Assembly (NCBI GenBank): GCA_963783055.1
Contig: CAWAMB010000004.1
Span: 718,304 to 782,303, forward strand
Reading direction: 5' to 3'
DNA: 64,000 bases
DNA from: an uncultured Chloroflexia bacterium
GTDB taxonomy: Bacteria; Chloroflexota; Limnocylindria; Limnocylindrales; CSP1-4
Below are positions 10,371 through 13,382 of the stretch, piece by piece. The notes under the pieces are model-generated. The model saw only the letters and a program-made list of their open reading frames with translations. It searched no databases and had not been told where the DNA came from. The number at the start of each line of letters is the position of its first letter. The stretch's first letter is position 1. The position numbers and the translations under genes are program-made.

Positions 10371-10441
10371 CTCGTCGGACGCCTGCTGCAGCGCCCGCTT
10401 AGATCGCGCGTCGTGGTAGCGTTTCGGTCGCGCCAATCCGA

Positions 10442-10517
10442 GCGGGAGTAGCTCAGTTGGCAGAGCGGCAGCCTTCCAAGCTGCATGTCGCGAGTTCGAA
10501 CCTCGTCTCCCGCTCCA
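10442..10517 (+). tRNA. tRNA-Gly (anticodon TCC)
   Basis: GCGGGAG/CTCCCGC acceptor stem, AGCTCAGTTGGCAGAGC D-arm, GCAGC-CTTCCAA-GCTGC anticodon arm, GTTCGAA T-loop, encoded CCA. Confidence 0.97.
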
Positions 10518-10596
10518 TCACCTTCGAACCCAGGCGGATTGGGGCTTCGAATCCTCCCGAGCGGGCCGCACCGAGCCGCTCGAGGTCTCGACCGGC

Positions 10597-10917
10597 CTAC
10601 CAGTCCGCCTTCGCGCTGAGCTGAACGCTGACCGTCTCGGTCAGCACGCGCGAGAGGATCATGGGCTCGGTCGTCGTGCGGTAGCGCAAGAAGTGGGGCG
10701 ACGCCCGGTGCGCGTCGTACGCCGCTTCGTCCGCATAGATCTCGAAGAAGCGGAACCGGGACGGGGCTTCCTTCTCCGTGACCGCGTAGAGCGCGAACAC
10801 GCCCGGCTCCACGCGCACGGACTCGGCCATCGCCGTCGTGACCGCCGAGATGAACGCCTCGCGCTGTACCGGATCGACCTCGATGTCGGCGATTCGGACG
10901 AAGGGTGTTGGCCGCAT
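10597..10917 (-). CDS. Antibiotic biosynthesis monooxygenase (ABM)/quinol monooxygenase family protein
   Basis: EPGVFALYAV...FRFFEIYADEAAYDAHRASPHF. Confidence 0.85.
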   Translation of the reverse strand: MRPTPFVRIADIEVDPVQREAFISAVTTAMAESVRVEPGVFALYAVTEKEAPSRFRFFEIYADEAAYDAHRASPHFLRYRTTTEPMILSRVLTETVSVQLSAKADW

Positions 10918-10931
10918 CGGAAGCTCCTATG

Positions 10932-11978
10932 TCAAGCCGCGGCCGCGAGGCCCGAAGGCGAGGCGGCTCGTGCGGCTTCATCGTGGCGCATCCGGCGGAA
11001 GACCTCGTCGCTGATCCGACGGCGAAGAGCACGGATCGCCTCGGGCTTCGTGTCGCCCATGGTCCGCCGGTGCTCGAGGTACGTCCTTCCCGGGCCCTCC
11101 CGCTGGAGCTGGGTGATCGCGATCCGATGGAGGGCGACGTTGAGCTGGCGGTTGCCGGTCCGGCTGAGTCGGTGGCGTTCGGTGTTGCCCGACCAGACCG
11201 GCAGCGGCGCTGAGCCGTTGTGACGGGCGAACGCGGCCCGCGACCGGAAGCGGCCGATGCCGGCTGTCTCGCCGACGAGCTTGGCCGCGGTCAGCGGGCC
11301 GCAGCCGGTCAGAGCCAGAAGGGACGGCGCAAGGTCGGCGACCAGGCGCTCGATCTCGCGCTCGAGGCCGTTGATCGTCCTGGTCAGATCCCGAATCCGG
11401 ACCACCAACTCGCGGGCGATGCGGCCGACGGTCCCGGGAGCATCGGCCAGGTCGCGCTCAAGGGCGGCCAGGACGACGGTCCGATTGAGGCTGCGGATCG
11501 GCGGCTCCGAGCCCGGGTCGAGCTCGTGGAGGTGCCAGCGCAGGCGGTTCTCGGCGCGCGTCCGCTCGGCGACGAGATCCTCGCGATGGTCCACGAGGAG
11601 CCGGACCTCGCGGTCGGGCCCGTCGAGGGTCGCGACCGGGAGATCCTCGCGGAGGGCCGCCCGGGCGACCGCGAGGGCGTCGATCGGATCGGACTTGCCA
11701 GGCTCTCGGCTCGAGCGCCGGGCGCCGGCCATCAGCTTCGGCGGAACGCGGACGACGCCTTCGCCGGCGACGAGCAGATCGGTCGACAGGCGTCGGCTCA
11801 GGTGGCGGCAGTCCTCCAGGGCCCAGGTCCGCTCGGCGAAGCGGGCGGCCCAGCGGACGAGCTCGAGGTGACCGGCGCTCGTCGCCGGGAGGGTCTTCTC
11901 GGCGAGCTTCCGGCCCGTCCCGTCGACGGCAATCGCGGTATGGGTGCGCTTGTGCGAATCGATGCCGATGACGATCAT
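10932..11978 (-). CDS. IS110-family transposase (DEDD RuvC-like recombinase)
   Basis: IGIDSHK, WALED, GKSDPIDA (D-E-D-D), coiled coil, C-terminal PVWSGN...SRTGNRQLN with catalytic Ser; AGGAGG SD. Confidence 0.97.
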   Translation of the reverse strand: MIVIGIDSHKRTHTAIAVDGTGRKLAEKTLPATSAGHLELVRWAARFAERTWALEDCRHLSRRLSTDLLVAGEGVVRVPPKLMAGARRSSREPGKSDPIDALAVARAALREDLPVATLDGPDREVRLLVDHREDLVAERTRAENRLRWHLHELDPGSEPPIRSLNRTVVLAALERDLADAPGTVGRIARELVVRIRDLTRTINGLEREIERLVADLAPSLLALTGCGPLTAAKLVGETAGIGRFRSRAAFARHNGSAPLPVWSGNTERHRLSRTGNRQLNVALHRIAITQLQREGPGRTYLEHRRTMGDTKPEAIRALRRRISDEVFRRMRHDEAARAASPSGLAAAA

Positions 11979-12004
11979 CTCCGTGTTGCCTCCTGATCAG
12001 GGGT

Positions 12005-12170
12005 GACGCTCCGGACCGGCCGGTGGACACGCCTGAGTGGGGGCGGTTACCACGCTCCTATGAAGTCACATCGGTCGGTCCGTTCCATGCCCGGCGACCG
12101 GCACTTCCGATGAAGGCCACACCCCTTCGGGCGGGCAACGAGTCTAGGAGCCAAGCCGCCGAGCTCCGAC
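12005..12170 (-). ncRNA. Putative IS110 bridge RNA (target-binding loop followed by donor-binding loop)
   Basis: Minus-strand guides TAGACTC (12140-12146), CATCGGAAG (12104-12112), CATAGGAGCG (12053-12062) and CACTCAGGCG (12030-12039) match the left flank, right flank and the two IS ends; closing stems present; exact ends approximate. Confidence 0.85.
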
Positions 12171-12260
12171 AGCGTGACACTCAGGCGGAGTCTACTGACG
12201 GACGTCGGGCATCGCCGCGCCCATCCGGCAACCAGCCACGCCGGGTACCGTGGCGGGGAC

Positions 12261-13382
12261 ATGCCGGGCCCTCCATCAGGTCGCTCGCGCGACCCTCGTG
12301 CCGCCGTCGCGGAGATGGCGATCGTCCTTCGTGGCGCGACCGCCCGGCTCGTTCCGCTCGAGCCCGGGCTGGCCGCCGCGGCCGAGGGGCTCTCCGCGAC
12401 CTACCGATCGGGTGACGTCGCGGCCGAACGCATGCCTCCGGTCCACGATCCGCGTACCGCCGCCGCCTACGCCGCGGCCCGGATGCCCGCGACGTTCGCC
12501 GCCGCCGGTCGAGCCATGGTCGAGGCAGCTGCGAGCCTGCCGGCGTTCGCGCCGCGCCGCCTGCTCGACGTCGGCGCCGGCACGGGTGCCGCGACGTGGG
12601 CCGCCGGCGCTGTCTGGCCGTCGCTCGACGCCATGATGCTGATCGATCGCGAGCCGGCCGCGATCGAGCTCGGACGTCGCCTGGCGGCGGCGTCCCGCGT
12701 CGGGTCCCTGGTGGCGGCGGACTGGCGAATCGGGACCCTTGCGAACGCCGCGTTCGACGAGGCCGATCTCGTGACCGCCGCGTACGTGCTCGGGGAGCTG
12801 TCCGAGGTCGATCGGACCGCGCTGGTCGAGCGGCTCTGGGCGGCAACCCGAGGCGCGCTCGTCCTCGTCGAGCCCGGCAGCCCGGCCGGGTACGGCCGGA
12901 TCCTGGCTGCCCGGTCTGTGCTCATCGCCGGCGGGGCCGCGATCGCGGCGCCGTGCCCGGGCGAGCGGCCCTGTCCGGTCGCGGCCAGCGACTGGTGCCA
13001 CTTCCTCGTGCGCGTCGAGCGGAGCGTCCTGCATCGGCGCGCGAAGTCCGCCGCTCGATCGTGGGAGGACGAGCCCATGTCCTATCTGGTCGCCACCAGG
13101 CTGACCGCGGAGCCCGCGCCTCGGGTTGTGCTCGGCCGGCCGCGGTCGCGTCCCGGCAAGGTCGAGCTACGCATCTGCGCCGACGATGGCCGGATCCATC
13201 GGCAGGTGGTCAGCCGTCGCGAGGGACCTCGCTACCGGGCGGCGCGGGATGTCGCGTGGGGCGATCGGATCCCGGCCGTCATTGCCGACGGGCTGGCCGA
13301 CAGATCGGACCACGGGCTGGCCGACGGACGCGCCGAGGAGCGTGCGACGGGTCGCGATCCGGAGTCGCCTCCCTCCAGCTGA
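12261..13382 (+). CDS. Rsm22/METTL17-family SAM methyltransferase
   Basis: AAYAAARMPATFAA, LLDVGAGTG, AYVLGEL, LVEPGSPAG, PCPGERPCP...WCHF. Confidence 0.85.
   Translation: MPGPPSGRSRDPRAAVAEMAIVLRGATARLVPLEPGLAAAAEGLSATYRSGDVAAERMPPVHDPRTAAAYAAARMPATFAAAGRAMVEAAASLPAFAPRRLLDVGAGTGAATWAAGAVWPSLDAMMLIDREPAAIELGRRLAAASRVGSLVAADWRIGTLANAAFDEADLVTAAYVLGELSEVDRTALVERLWAATRGALVLVEPGSPAGYGRILAARSVLIAGGAAIAAPCPGERPCPVAASDWCHFLVRVERSVLHRRAKSAARSWEDEPMSYLVATRLTAEPAPRVVLGRPRSRPGKVELRICADDGRIHRQVVSRREGPRYRAARDVAWGDRIPAVIADGLADRSDHGLADGRAEERATGRDPESPPSS

Follow-up and report, generated by a model that had tools for sequence, protein, structure and literature searches.

How does an insertion sequence (IS) come to lie precisely between a promoter element and the start codon of a gene, and which of its own nucleotides could direct it there? 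The question is raised by a 64,000-nucleotide stretch of DNA from an uncultured Chloroflexia bacterium, referred to here as the window, in which an element on the minus strand separates the hexamer TAGACT from the ATG of a gene encoding a small ABM-domain protein. A reading made from the letters alone, the sequence-only reading, had described an intact IS110 element with a 5' bridge RNA whose guide segments follow the order left target guide (LTG), right target guide (RTG), left donor guide (LDG) and right donor guide (RDG). That identification is supported by the protein families, the RNA fold and the covariation of guides with flanks described below; the interpretation as a whole is partly supported, being right in kind but wrong in its boundaries and guide lengths. 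In our view the locus very probably holds a 1264-bp IS110 IS with a bridge RNA that carries target guides, donor guides and a handshake segment, inserted between TAGACT and the ABM ATG.

The protein encoded by the element is, on the strength of its family matches, an IS110-family RNA-guided transposase of the DEDD/Ser type. The intact open reading frame (ORF) of 348 aa at 10932-11978 (-) matches PF01548 DEDD_Tnp_IS110, a RuvC-like domain, at 2.4e-26 (92.8 bits, cut-off 29), PF02371 Transposase_20 at 1.2e-16 (61.3 bits, cut-off 21.3) and the NCBIfam model NF033542 'IS110 family RNA-guided transposase' with 190.5 bits (cut-off 140). Relatives were collected by a scan of a genome collection, which yielded 503 stretches encoding them, and the best 80 of the 503 were kept as L015-L094; their hosts are chiefly metagenome-assembled genomes (MAGs) labelled Chloroflexota or Limnocylindria, with some Actinomycetota, and several genomes carry 3-6 copies. 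Residues D7, E55, D97, D100 and S263 are invariant in 22 homologues and lie in GxD, LED, SDPID and WSG motifs that align to ISCro4, and by motif position they are probably equivalent to D11, E60, D102, D105 and S241 of IS621. A profile built from the same 22 homologues matches solved transposase structures of the IS621/ISCro4 group (8wt6 and 9t56), at 2.5e-14 for ISCro4 and 8.6e-13 for IS621. Since the single transposase sequence had no match in a search of the PDB and the profile was needed, we place the protein on a distant branch. The profile also gave a weak match to the archaeal Nop5-type chain 1nt2_B (E 0.0012), and the transposase matched a TIGR-Tas endonuclease model at 7.5e-08, below the cut-off of that model. 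IS110 transposases are linked in published work to both the Nop5-type and the TIGR-Tas families, and these weak matches agree with that.

On the minus strand the left junction reads TAGACTC|CGCCTGAGTG (12194-12178) and the right junction CATAGGAG|CTTCCGATG (10931-10915), while the non-coding end of the element contains, in this order, TAGACTCG (12146-12139), CATCGGAAG (12112-12104), CATAGGAGCG (12062-12053) and CACTCAGGCG (12039-12030). These junctions and segments had all been named in the sequence-only reading, and every one was found where it had been placed. Each string alone occurred at a frequency of 0.0004-0.005 in 200,000 composition-preserving shuffles of the 199-nt non-coding stretch; two or more occurred in 4 shuffles and all four together in none, and for that reason we take the four-string observation to be real rather than a product of chance.

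That the non-coding region 5' of the transposase gene is an IS110 bridge (seek) RNA of ~150 nt with two internal loops is well supported by comparison of homologues. Its fold has two internal loops closed by stems, and each loop surrounds a small hairpin. The target-binding module (12089-12164) has an outer stem of 12164-12150 with 12102-12089 and an inner hairpin at 12136-12116 (helices 1 and 2), and the donor-binding module (12013-12081) an outer helix of 12081-12065 with 12028-12013 and an inner hairpin at 12051-12042 (helices 3 and 4). In an alignment of 44 non-redundant homologues, used both for the structure test and for the covariation of pairs, 95.4% of the cells of this four-helix structure are paired and 20 of the 39 pairs show changes on both sides. 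When the partners were slid by 1-3 columns, at most 45% of cells were paired and at most 5 pairs were compensatory, and none of 500 shuffles reached the observed values. Helix 1 (CTCGGCGGC/GTCGCCGGG) is paired in 98.9% of cells, with both-side changes in 12 of its 14 pairs, and helix 3 (GGACCGACCG/CGGCCGGTCC) in 90.3%, with both-side changes in 5 of 16; these are the two closing stems that had been proposed from the sequence, and both are kept across the 44 homologues. Helices 1 and 2 together contribute 14 pairs with compensatory change, and in the donor loop pair 120:168 is CG in 24 sequences and UA in 15. An Rfam scan of the sequence returned no family, the best values (E 0.58 and 0.97) falling on unrelated models, and the folding energy of the single sequence (z = 0.11) is uninformative at this G+C content.

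Two further observations concern the RNA and its surroundings. A small hairpin, CCUGAUCAGG, lies at 11979-12000 (-) and overlaps the GGAGG before the transposase start; relatives have CCUCG..CGAGG or CCG..CGG there. Its pairing appears, as judged by eye, to be kept through both-side changes, and as the alignment shifts by two columns it stands outside the pair counts above. Such a hairpin could gate translation of the transposase. In one relative (L024, 1759-1832) the first 37 nt of the element (TGAGTG...GGCTCA) are tandemly duplicated, and the second copy runs directly into the LTG.

The guide segments lie in these loops. Comparison shows that the first loop reads the two flanks of the insertion site, the LTG UAGACUCGUU (12137-12146) the left flank (TAGACTC...), which its first 7-8 nt equal, and the RTG proper, CAUCGG (12107-12112), the right flank CGATG (10919-10915) together with the C at the joint. 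The three bases 3' of the RTG, AAG (12104-12106), pair with the element's right-end CTT (10923-10921). The second loop reads the element's own right and left ends through the LDG CAUAGGAGC and the RDG CACUCAG. Read directly, the second-loop segments have the sense expected of such guides: the LDG CAUAGGAGCGU (12052-12062) has the same sense as the right end and equals its left donor (LD) sequence CATAGGAGC (10931-10923), and the RDG (12039-12033 within 12030-12039) is the complement of the right donor (RD) sequence, the left-end TGAGTG at 12178-12183. The RDG is followed by a 3' extension, GCG (12032-12030), complementary to the CGC at 12187-12185.

Where the element begins and ends decides how these pairings are to be read. 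The boundary rule that we tested states that the element is TGAGTG...GGAG plus 4 nt, with zero duplication, and empty sites were sought in close relatives of the host genomes by tracking the gene downstream of each insertion. The empty sites of homologous insertions lack the 4 nt after GGAG and contain the nucleotides that precede TGAGTG. Predicted and real empty sites have spacers of equal length in 8 of 8 comparisons and identical sequences in 4 of 8. In these four, L036 (TAGACTGCCCC|...CAAC|GGATG) corresponds to empty L144 (tagactgccccggATG), L051 (TACCATCGGC|...CAAC|GGATG) to empty L155 (taccatcggcggATG), L040 (TACCATCGCCC|...CTTC|GATG), whose right end CTTC is that of the window element, to empty L169 (taccatcgcccgATG), and a second copy of the element in the same genome, copy B (TAGACTCCGCC|...CTTC|CGGTG), to the empty orthologue L096 (tagactccgcccgGTG). 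In the remaining comparisons the relative's sequence departs by one base for L034 and by two for L035, and divergence is greater for L038 and L065. The comparisons indicate that the window element extends from TGAGTG at 12183 to GGAGCTTC at 10920, TGAGTGTCAC... to ...TTGACATAGGAGCTTC, which is 1264 bp (10920-12183) without target duplication. The CGCC at 12187-12184 would then derive from the target and the CTTC at 10923-10920 from the element.

The principal competitor is the exact model of the sequence-only reading, in which the element runs from 12187 to 10924 and every one of the four strings of 7-10 nt is a pre-recombination guide, with TAGACTC|CTTCCGATG as target, CATAGGAG-CG-CCTGAGTG as donor junction and CG as the shared core. 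It has real attractions: a CG overlap joins the LDG to the reverse-complemented RDG, each of which matches its own junction 10/10, and the model yields the same 7-nt copy-B spacer as the orthologues and the same 17-nt spacing in the junction promoter discussed below. We nevertheless consider it improbable. All four of the exactly matching occupied/empty pairs, the CTTC family among them, lack the 4 nt after GGAG in the empty site and have the nucleotides before TGAGTG. Those 4 nt are invariant in 10 of 11 multi-site families (36 sites), whereas copies that are otherwise identical vary in the 2-4 nt ahead of TGAGTG; one MAG has five such copies, with CCA, GCC, CCC, GAC and TCC. A 97% relative in metagenome contigs diverges beyond 12185, homologues with the same RDG carry GCC, GAC, GGC or CAC where the window has CGC, and the empty site L096 agrees with that model at 14 of 16 bases against 16 of 16 for the revised one (TAGACTCCGCCCG(A/G)TG). 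An empty allele with other boundaries had been named beforehand as grounds for rejecting the proposal, and the empty sites of homologous insertions are of this kind; the boundary part of the proposal fails, being off by 3-4 nt on each side. The match of the strings to the integrated junctions over 9-10 nt arises because their 3' ends extend over the joint, AAG facing the element's CTT and GCG the target's CGC, so that they are not pure pre-recombination guides with right-hand arms of 9-10 nt but cross the joint to another partner. Similarly, recognition of 15-16 bp of target gives way to ~13-14 target-derived bases (LTG 7-8 plus up to 2 wobble, RTG 5-6).

With the revised boundaries the predicted empty site of the window, formerly given as TAGACT(C)CTTCCGATG, becomes TAGACTCCGCC|CGATG, or in longer form ...GTCAGTAGACTCCGCC|CGATGCGGCC..., and that of copy B is predicted to be ...GGCTAGACTCCGCC|CGGTGACCGAG... 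The circle junction, formerly CATAGGAGCGCCTGAGTG, is now predicted as ...GGAGCTTC|TGAGTG..., in longer form ...TTGACATAGGAGCTTC|TGAGTGTCACGC... Four core placements were also considered and dropped, namely a CT core inside TAGA-CT, a CT core before GAGTG, and TC or CC dinucleotide cores, because against the empty sites they give 4- or 9-10-nt spacers or unequal cores. In the 57 parsed sites used for target statistics, TGAGTG is preceded by C (32 sites), G (19), T (4) or A (2), and the fourth base after GGAG is C in 50. No core dinucleotide of the IS621 CT type is common to both junctions, and the base before the joint differs between target and element. If strands were exchanged 3' of the joint base, the left junction would keep the target's base and the right junction the element's C, as expected of top-strand-type products. 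The junction pattern fits a top-strand exchange and is consistent with claims of top-strand or single-strand insertion made in two preprints (10.1101/2025.10.25.684509; 10.64898/2026.08.31.748434); an exchange of both strands at one and the same position would leave an identical pattern.

Is the element a mobile one? Copy B (G000:C4:333999-335262) is identical to the window element over all 1264 bp. The flanks of the two copies have in common only TAGACTCCGCC on the left (11 nt, 12184-12194 in the window) and CG(A/G)TG on the right (5 nt), the window having CGATG and copy B CGGTG; the one difference faces a U of the RTG and would form an rU:dG wobble. The window copy adjoins the ABM gene and copy B a methyltransferase gene. 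Copies at sites unrelated to the guides had been named in advance as telling against RNA guidance, and the second copy instead occupies a site that the guides predict. The 97% relative is present in contigs of four metagenomic DNA runs from two studies; at their loose ends CTTCCG(A/G)TG leads into different genes, which gives additional right flanks, and one more left flank occurs. A search of the host's own genome with up to one mismatch found no unoccupied site for the empty-site strings of the sequence-only reading or of the CT-core models, and one 13-mer match was within chance. The copy-B orthologue L108 was left out of all counts and claims.

An alternative is that the element is intact but immobile in this host and that its two copies arose by segmental duplication or as an effect of assembly. 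The genome is a draft of 4 contigs, 69.7% complete, the contigs of the four metagenome runs hold no circle or polymorphic site, and 13 near-cognate sites of the form TAGACT-N4-6-CG(A/G)TG remain unoccupied in the genome. These points are outweighed, and we find the alternative very unlikely: the flanks show no relation outside the 11 nt on the left and the 5 nt on the right, different genes adjoin the copies, identity ends at the guide-specified bases, 97% relatives lie at further sites, and the catalytic residues and all invariant RNA columns are retained.

A third, partial copy (G000:C4:1707408-1707913; L003 1501-2006) comprises only element nt 518-1020, at 99% identity. It sits in a promoter-like site whose left flank ends ...TTAGACTCGA, an 8/8 match to the LTG, and an ORF with a lipoprotein-type signal (MTKLLAAAVALALCLVGC) begins in its right flank, TCGACGCGGGTGACGAAG.... 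On the right the fragment breaks off at an internal GACTCAG, which is similar to the RDG and on the other strand forms a pseudo left end; the partial copy may be the product of recombination at a half-matching site.

Covariation between guides and flanks was assessed on unique guide/flank pairs with shuffled partners as control, and it is present for both target guides; its absence had been named in the sequence-only reading as grounds for refutation. Over 63 unique pairs, an average of 7.40 of the first 8 LTG nucleotides agree with the left flank; shuffled partners average 5.66 +/- 0.12, and the best of 2000 shuffles reached 6.19. Throughout the family the LTG ends in the same U. For the RTG, its six bases and nt 5-10 downstream of GGAG are paired at 242 of 294 positions; shuffled partners gave 163 +/- 7.5, and 0 of 5000 shuffles came as high. 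RNA positions 1, 2 and 3 of the handshake are Watson-Crick paired in 15, 16 and 7 of 16 unique element types, 38 of 48 positions overall against 19.9 +/- 3.1 shuffled (0 of 5000 as high), and their partner bases are absent from the empty sites. Judged by these pairings, the match of AAG with the element's right-end CTT is a rule of the family and a handshake-type segment. On the donor side LD and LDG change together among three states (ATA, ACA, AGA), and RD and RDG among at least three (TGAGTG, TCAGTG, CCAGTG), with pair 2:157 GC in 42 homologues and CG in 2; as LD/LDG and RD/RDG are invariant in most sequences, TGAGTG nearly so in the 44 homologues, this covariation is thin. The weakest explanation, in which the region serves as no more than a structured leader or as subterminal repeats bound by protein, the transposase protein picks the site and the flank matches are a by-product of one conserved motif, can point to a donor-side match that is mostly conservation and to a promoter-like target motif that a protein could read too, but it is hardly credible given that the LTG co-changes with the left flank (for example TAGACTCG, TACCATCG, TATCCTCG and TACGCTCG) above the shuffled maximum, that the RTG co-changes with the right flank (for example CAACGCATG, CTTCGATGC and TAACGCATGA), that the tolerated mismatches are of wobble type (A to G opposite U in copy B), and that RNA guidance has been demonstrated experimentally for the IS110 family in published accounts (PMC11208160; PMC11187229).

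What class of site, then, does this bridge RNA read? The window element is inserted 2 nt upstream of the ATG (10917) of the displaced host gene, which together with the right target flank occupies 10597-10919 and encodes 106 aa with an ABM domain (PF03992, 9.5e-17); on the other side lies TAGACT (12194-12189), a -10-type hexamer of what would be the interrupted promoter. The same arrangement recurs in the clade. Twenty-nine of 32 examined insertions adjoin the ATG or GTG start of an ORF of 94 aa or more, and the insertion point lies 1 nt before the start codon at 12 sites, 2 nt at 31 and 3 nt at 1. The flank matched by the LTG begins TAnnnT, and at the 44 sites with a reconstructed spacer between hexamer and start this spacer is 5 nt at 1 site, 6 nt at 25, 7 nt at 17 and 8 nt at 1. 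Of the 57 parsed sites, 44 have the layout of -10 box, 6-7 nt and ATG or GTG. Other species keep the hexamer and its spacing in their empty orthologous sites, though not the sequence around them, and at least 12 orthologues of the copy-B gene have TAGACT 6-8 nt before the start. In the host genome the counts of TANNNT-Nk-ATG for k = 3 to 11 are 20, 20, 18, 160, 137, 60, 57, 32 and 12, an excess that the spacer distribution of the targets mirrors. Because TANNNT is so abundant 6-7 nt before ATG (160 and 137, against about 20 at 3-5 nt), leaderless genes seem to be common in the host organism, and since such a gap leaves no room for a Shine-Dalgarno sequence, we read the targets as probable promoters of leaderless genes. 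The word 'leaderless' is absent from the bridge-RNA literature that could be searched.

The ends of the element suggest how it might live in such sites. Within the right end TTGACATAGGAGCTTC (10920-10935) a conserved -35-like TTGACA spans the stop codon; the LD, a GGAG that stands 6 nt ahead of the host ATG, and the joint C (10920) are there too. Of 29 distinct right ends, 25 have this TTGACA across the stop codon and 24 have GCT as their last codon. At element nt 8-13 a CAnnnT occurs in 13 of 14 distinct left ends, A9 and T13 being invariant; in the window this is CACGCT (12171-12176), a putative -10-like hexamer, and it would stand 17 nt downstream of the right-end TTGACA if the ends were joined. 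The insertion places TGAGTG...GGAGCTTC between the hexamer TAGACT and the ATG. We propose that transposition proceeds via a circle, whose junction would bring the two boxes together as a promoter for the bridge RNA, starting it just before the first stem. Once the element is integrated, the host TAGACT stands 5 nt ahead of it, so that transcription beginning 7 nt past the hexamer would start at the A of TGAGTG (12181). Captured in this way, the host -10 box could drive transcription from about the third base of the element, and the element's GGAG could serve as ribosome-binding site for the displaced gene; geometry is what points to both.

Taken together, these features lead us to entertain, as a tentative but reasonable idea, that the clade has come to specialise on leaderless genes, whose start codon is at the same time the transcription start, and there on the 6-7 nt that separate this codon from the -10 box. 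If true, this would have three consequences. First, the host promoter would fire ~2 nt inside the left end, and both the bridge RNA and the transposase gene of the integrated copy would be transcribed from it; by contrast, IS621 in its integrated form is reported to express its bridge RNA only weakly (PMC13626964). Second, the host gene, now leadered, would gain a ribosome-binding site from the conserved GGAG, which would make the insertion nearly neutral. Third, the one-sided exchange without a shared core would be natural-history evidence for insertion by the top strand only.

Several observations weigh against the model as proposed. The window's own boundaries are set by analogy, from relatives with 71-80% transposase identity and from an orthologue of the copy-B site in another species (90% aa identity), and at that orthologue, L096, the earlier boundaries yield the same spacer length. 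Orthologues of the ABM gene occur in 2 of 40 relatives, where they are non-syntenic and offer no empty site for the window's own locus. The contigs of the four metagenome runs contained neither an empty site nor a circle junction, one skip joint being unrelated, and the tandem or circle junction pattern TTGACATAGGAG-N2-6-TGAGTGTCA had 0 matches in 401 genomes of the phylum. Across homologues the RDG 3' extension pairs with the target end at chance level (48 of 93 positions, 45.6 shuffled); its GCG matches the target only in the two copies of the window genome, which may reflect a preference or chance. The LTG match lies at varying distances from the joint (1 nt, 27 pairs; 2 nt, 28; 3 nt, 4; 4 nt, 3), a variation that a rigid RNA-protein ruler would not predict, and the window's LTG pairs fully only with one target base bulged. 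Thirteen of the 57 parsed sites fall outside the -10/start layout, the clearest misfits being L080-85 (right flank CGGCGACC), L061-64 and L071, whose right flanks have no start codon. Finally, a scan of 10800-12400 for E. coli-type promoters and terminators found nothing.

The surroundings of the element can be described briefly. It occupies a short divergent intergenic region between the ABM gene and an Rsm22-type methyltransferase gene, a 402-aa ORF at 12174-13382 (+) whose listed GTG start at 12174 lies inside the element; as its Pfam match begins at residue 95, the true start must be further in. Beyond the ABM gene, a tRNA-Gly(TCC) gene at 10442-10517 (+) accounts for a very high multi-organism contig depth at 10438-10551.

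Bridge recombinases are mined as programmable genome-writing enzymes, and their design rules (core, handshake and guide lengths) come almost wholly from IS621 and its close kin. The distant, high-GC clade described here appears to differ in that only the donor side has a single fixed joint base, the handshake of 2-3 nt takes in the base beside the joint, and the left guide tolerates 1-2 nt of slack. If these rules hold at the bench, the set of targetable sites would be wider, as no CT is needed in the target. The RNA guide of the element seems tuned to a class of regulatory site, leaderless promoters, rather than to one repeat, with a plausible route to expression at little harm to the host. 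The correction of the boundaries is also a practical matter: primers or donor designs based on the earlier junctions would be off by 4 nt.

Compared with the known systems, the element shares with IS621, IS622 and ISCro4 a DEDD and Ser transposase and a 5' RNA in which a target-binding loop precedes a donor-binding loop, with guides in the order LTG-RTG-LDG-RDG (Durrant et al., 2024, PMC11208160; Hiraizumi et al., 2024, PMC11208158). As in IS621, the LTG has the sense of the left flank and the RTG is the complement of the right flank, and the right end has a -35 box and the left end a -10-like box. For IS621, handshake guides 3' of the RTG are described as pairing with the left arm of the donor (PMC11208158), to which the window's AAG corresponds, and a junction promoter in the circle is described for IS621 and for ISEc11/ISEc21 (PMC11208158; PMC11187229). 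In contrast, the sequence relation to IS621 is weak (E ~1e-13 with a profile, no match with the single sequence), and the clade lacks a CT core at both junctions, having a nearly fixed C on the element side (50 of 57) and C 32, G 19, T 4 and A 2 on the target side. Moreover, its handshake is 2-3 nt long and includes the joint-adjacent base, its LTG lies 1-2 nt, rarely 3-4 nt, from the joint, and its natural targets are promoter/start-codon junctions, whereas those of the IS621 group are REP-like repeats. The seekRNA element ISEc21 is alike in having the non-coding region upstream of the transposase gene and no target duplication, and a circle with a junction promoter is reported for it, as we would expect for the window element (Siddiquee et al., 2024, PMC11187229). 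Going by its description in that report, ISEc21 differs in targeting a conserved stretch within IS3-family transposase genes.

The actinobacterial elements IS900 and IS901 belong to the same family. IS900 reportedly inserts at translation initiation signals and in one orientation, as the title of Doran et al. (1997) has it. The present clade differs in inserting between the -10 box and the start codon, where there is no room for a ribosome-binding site, whereas IS900 is described as lying in leadered genes, with the ribosome-binding site on one side and the start codon on the other.

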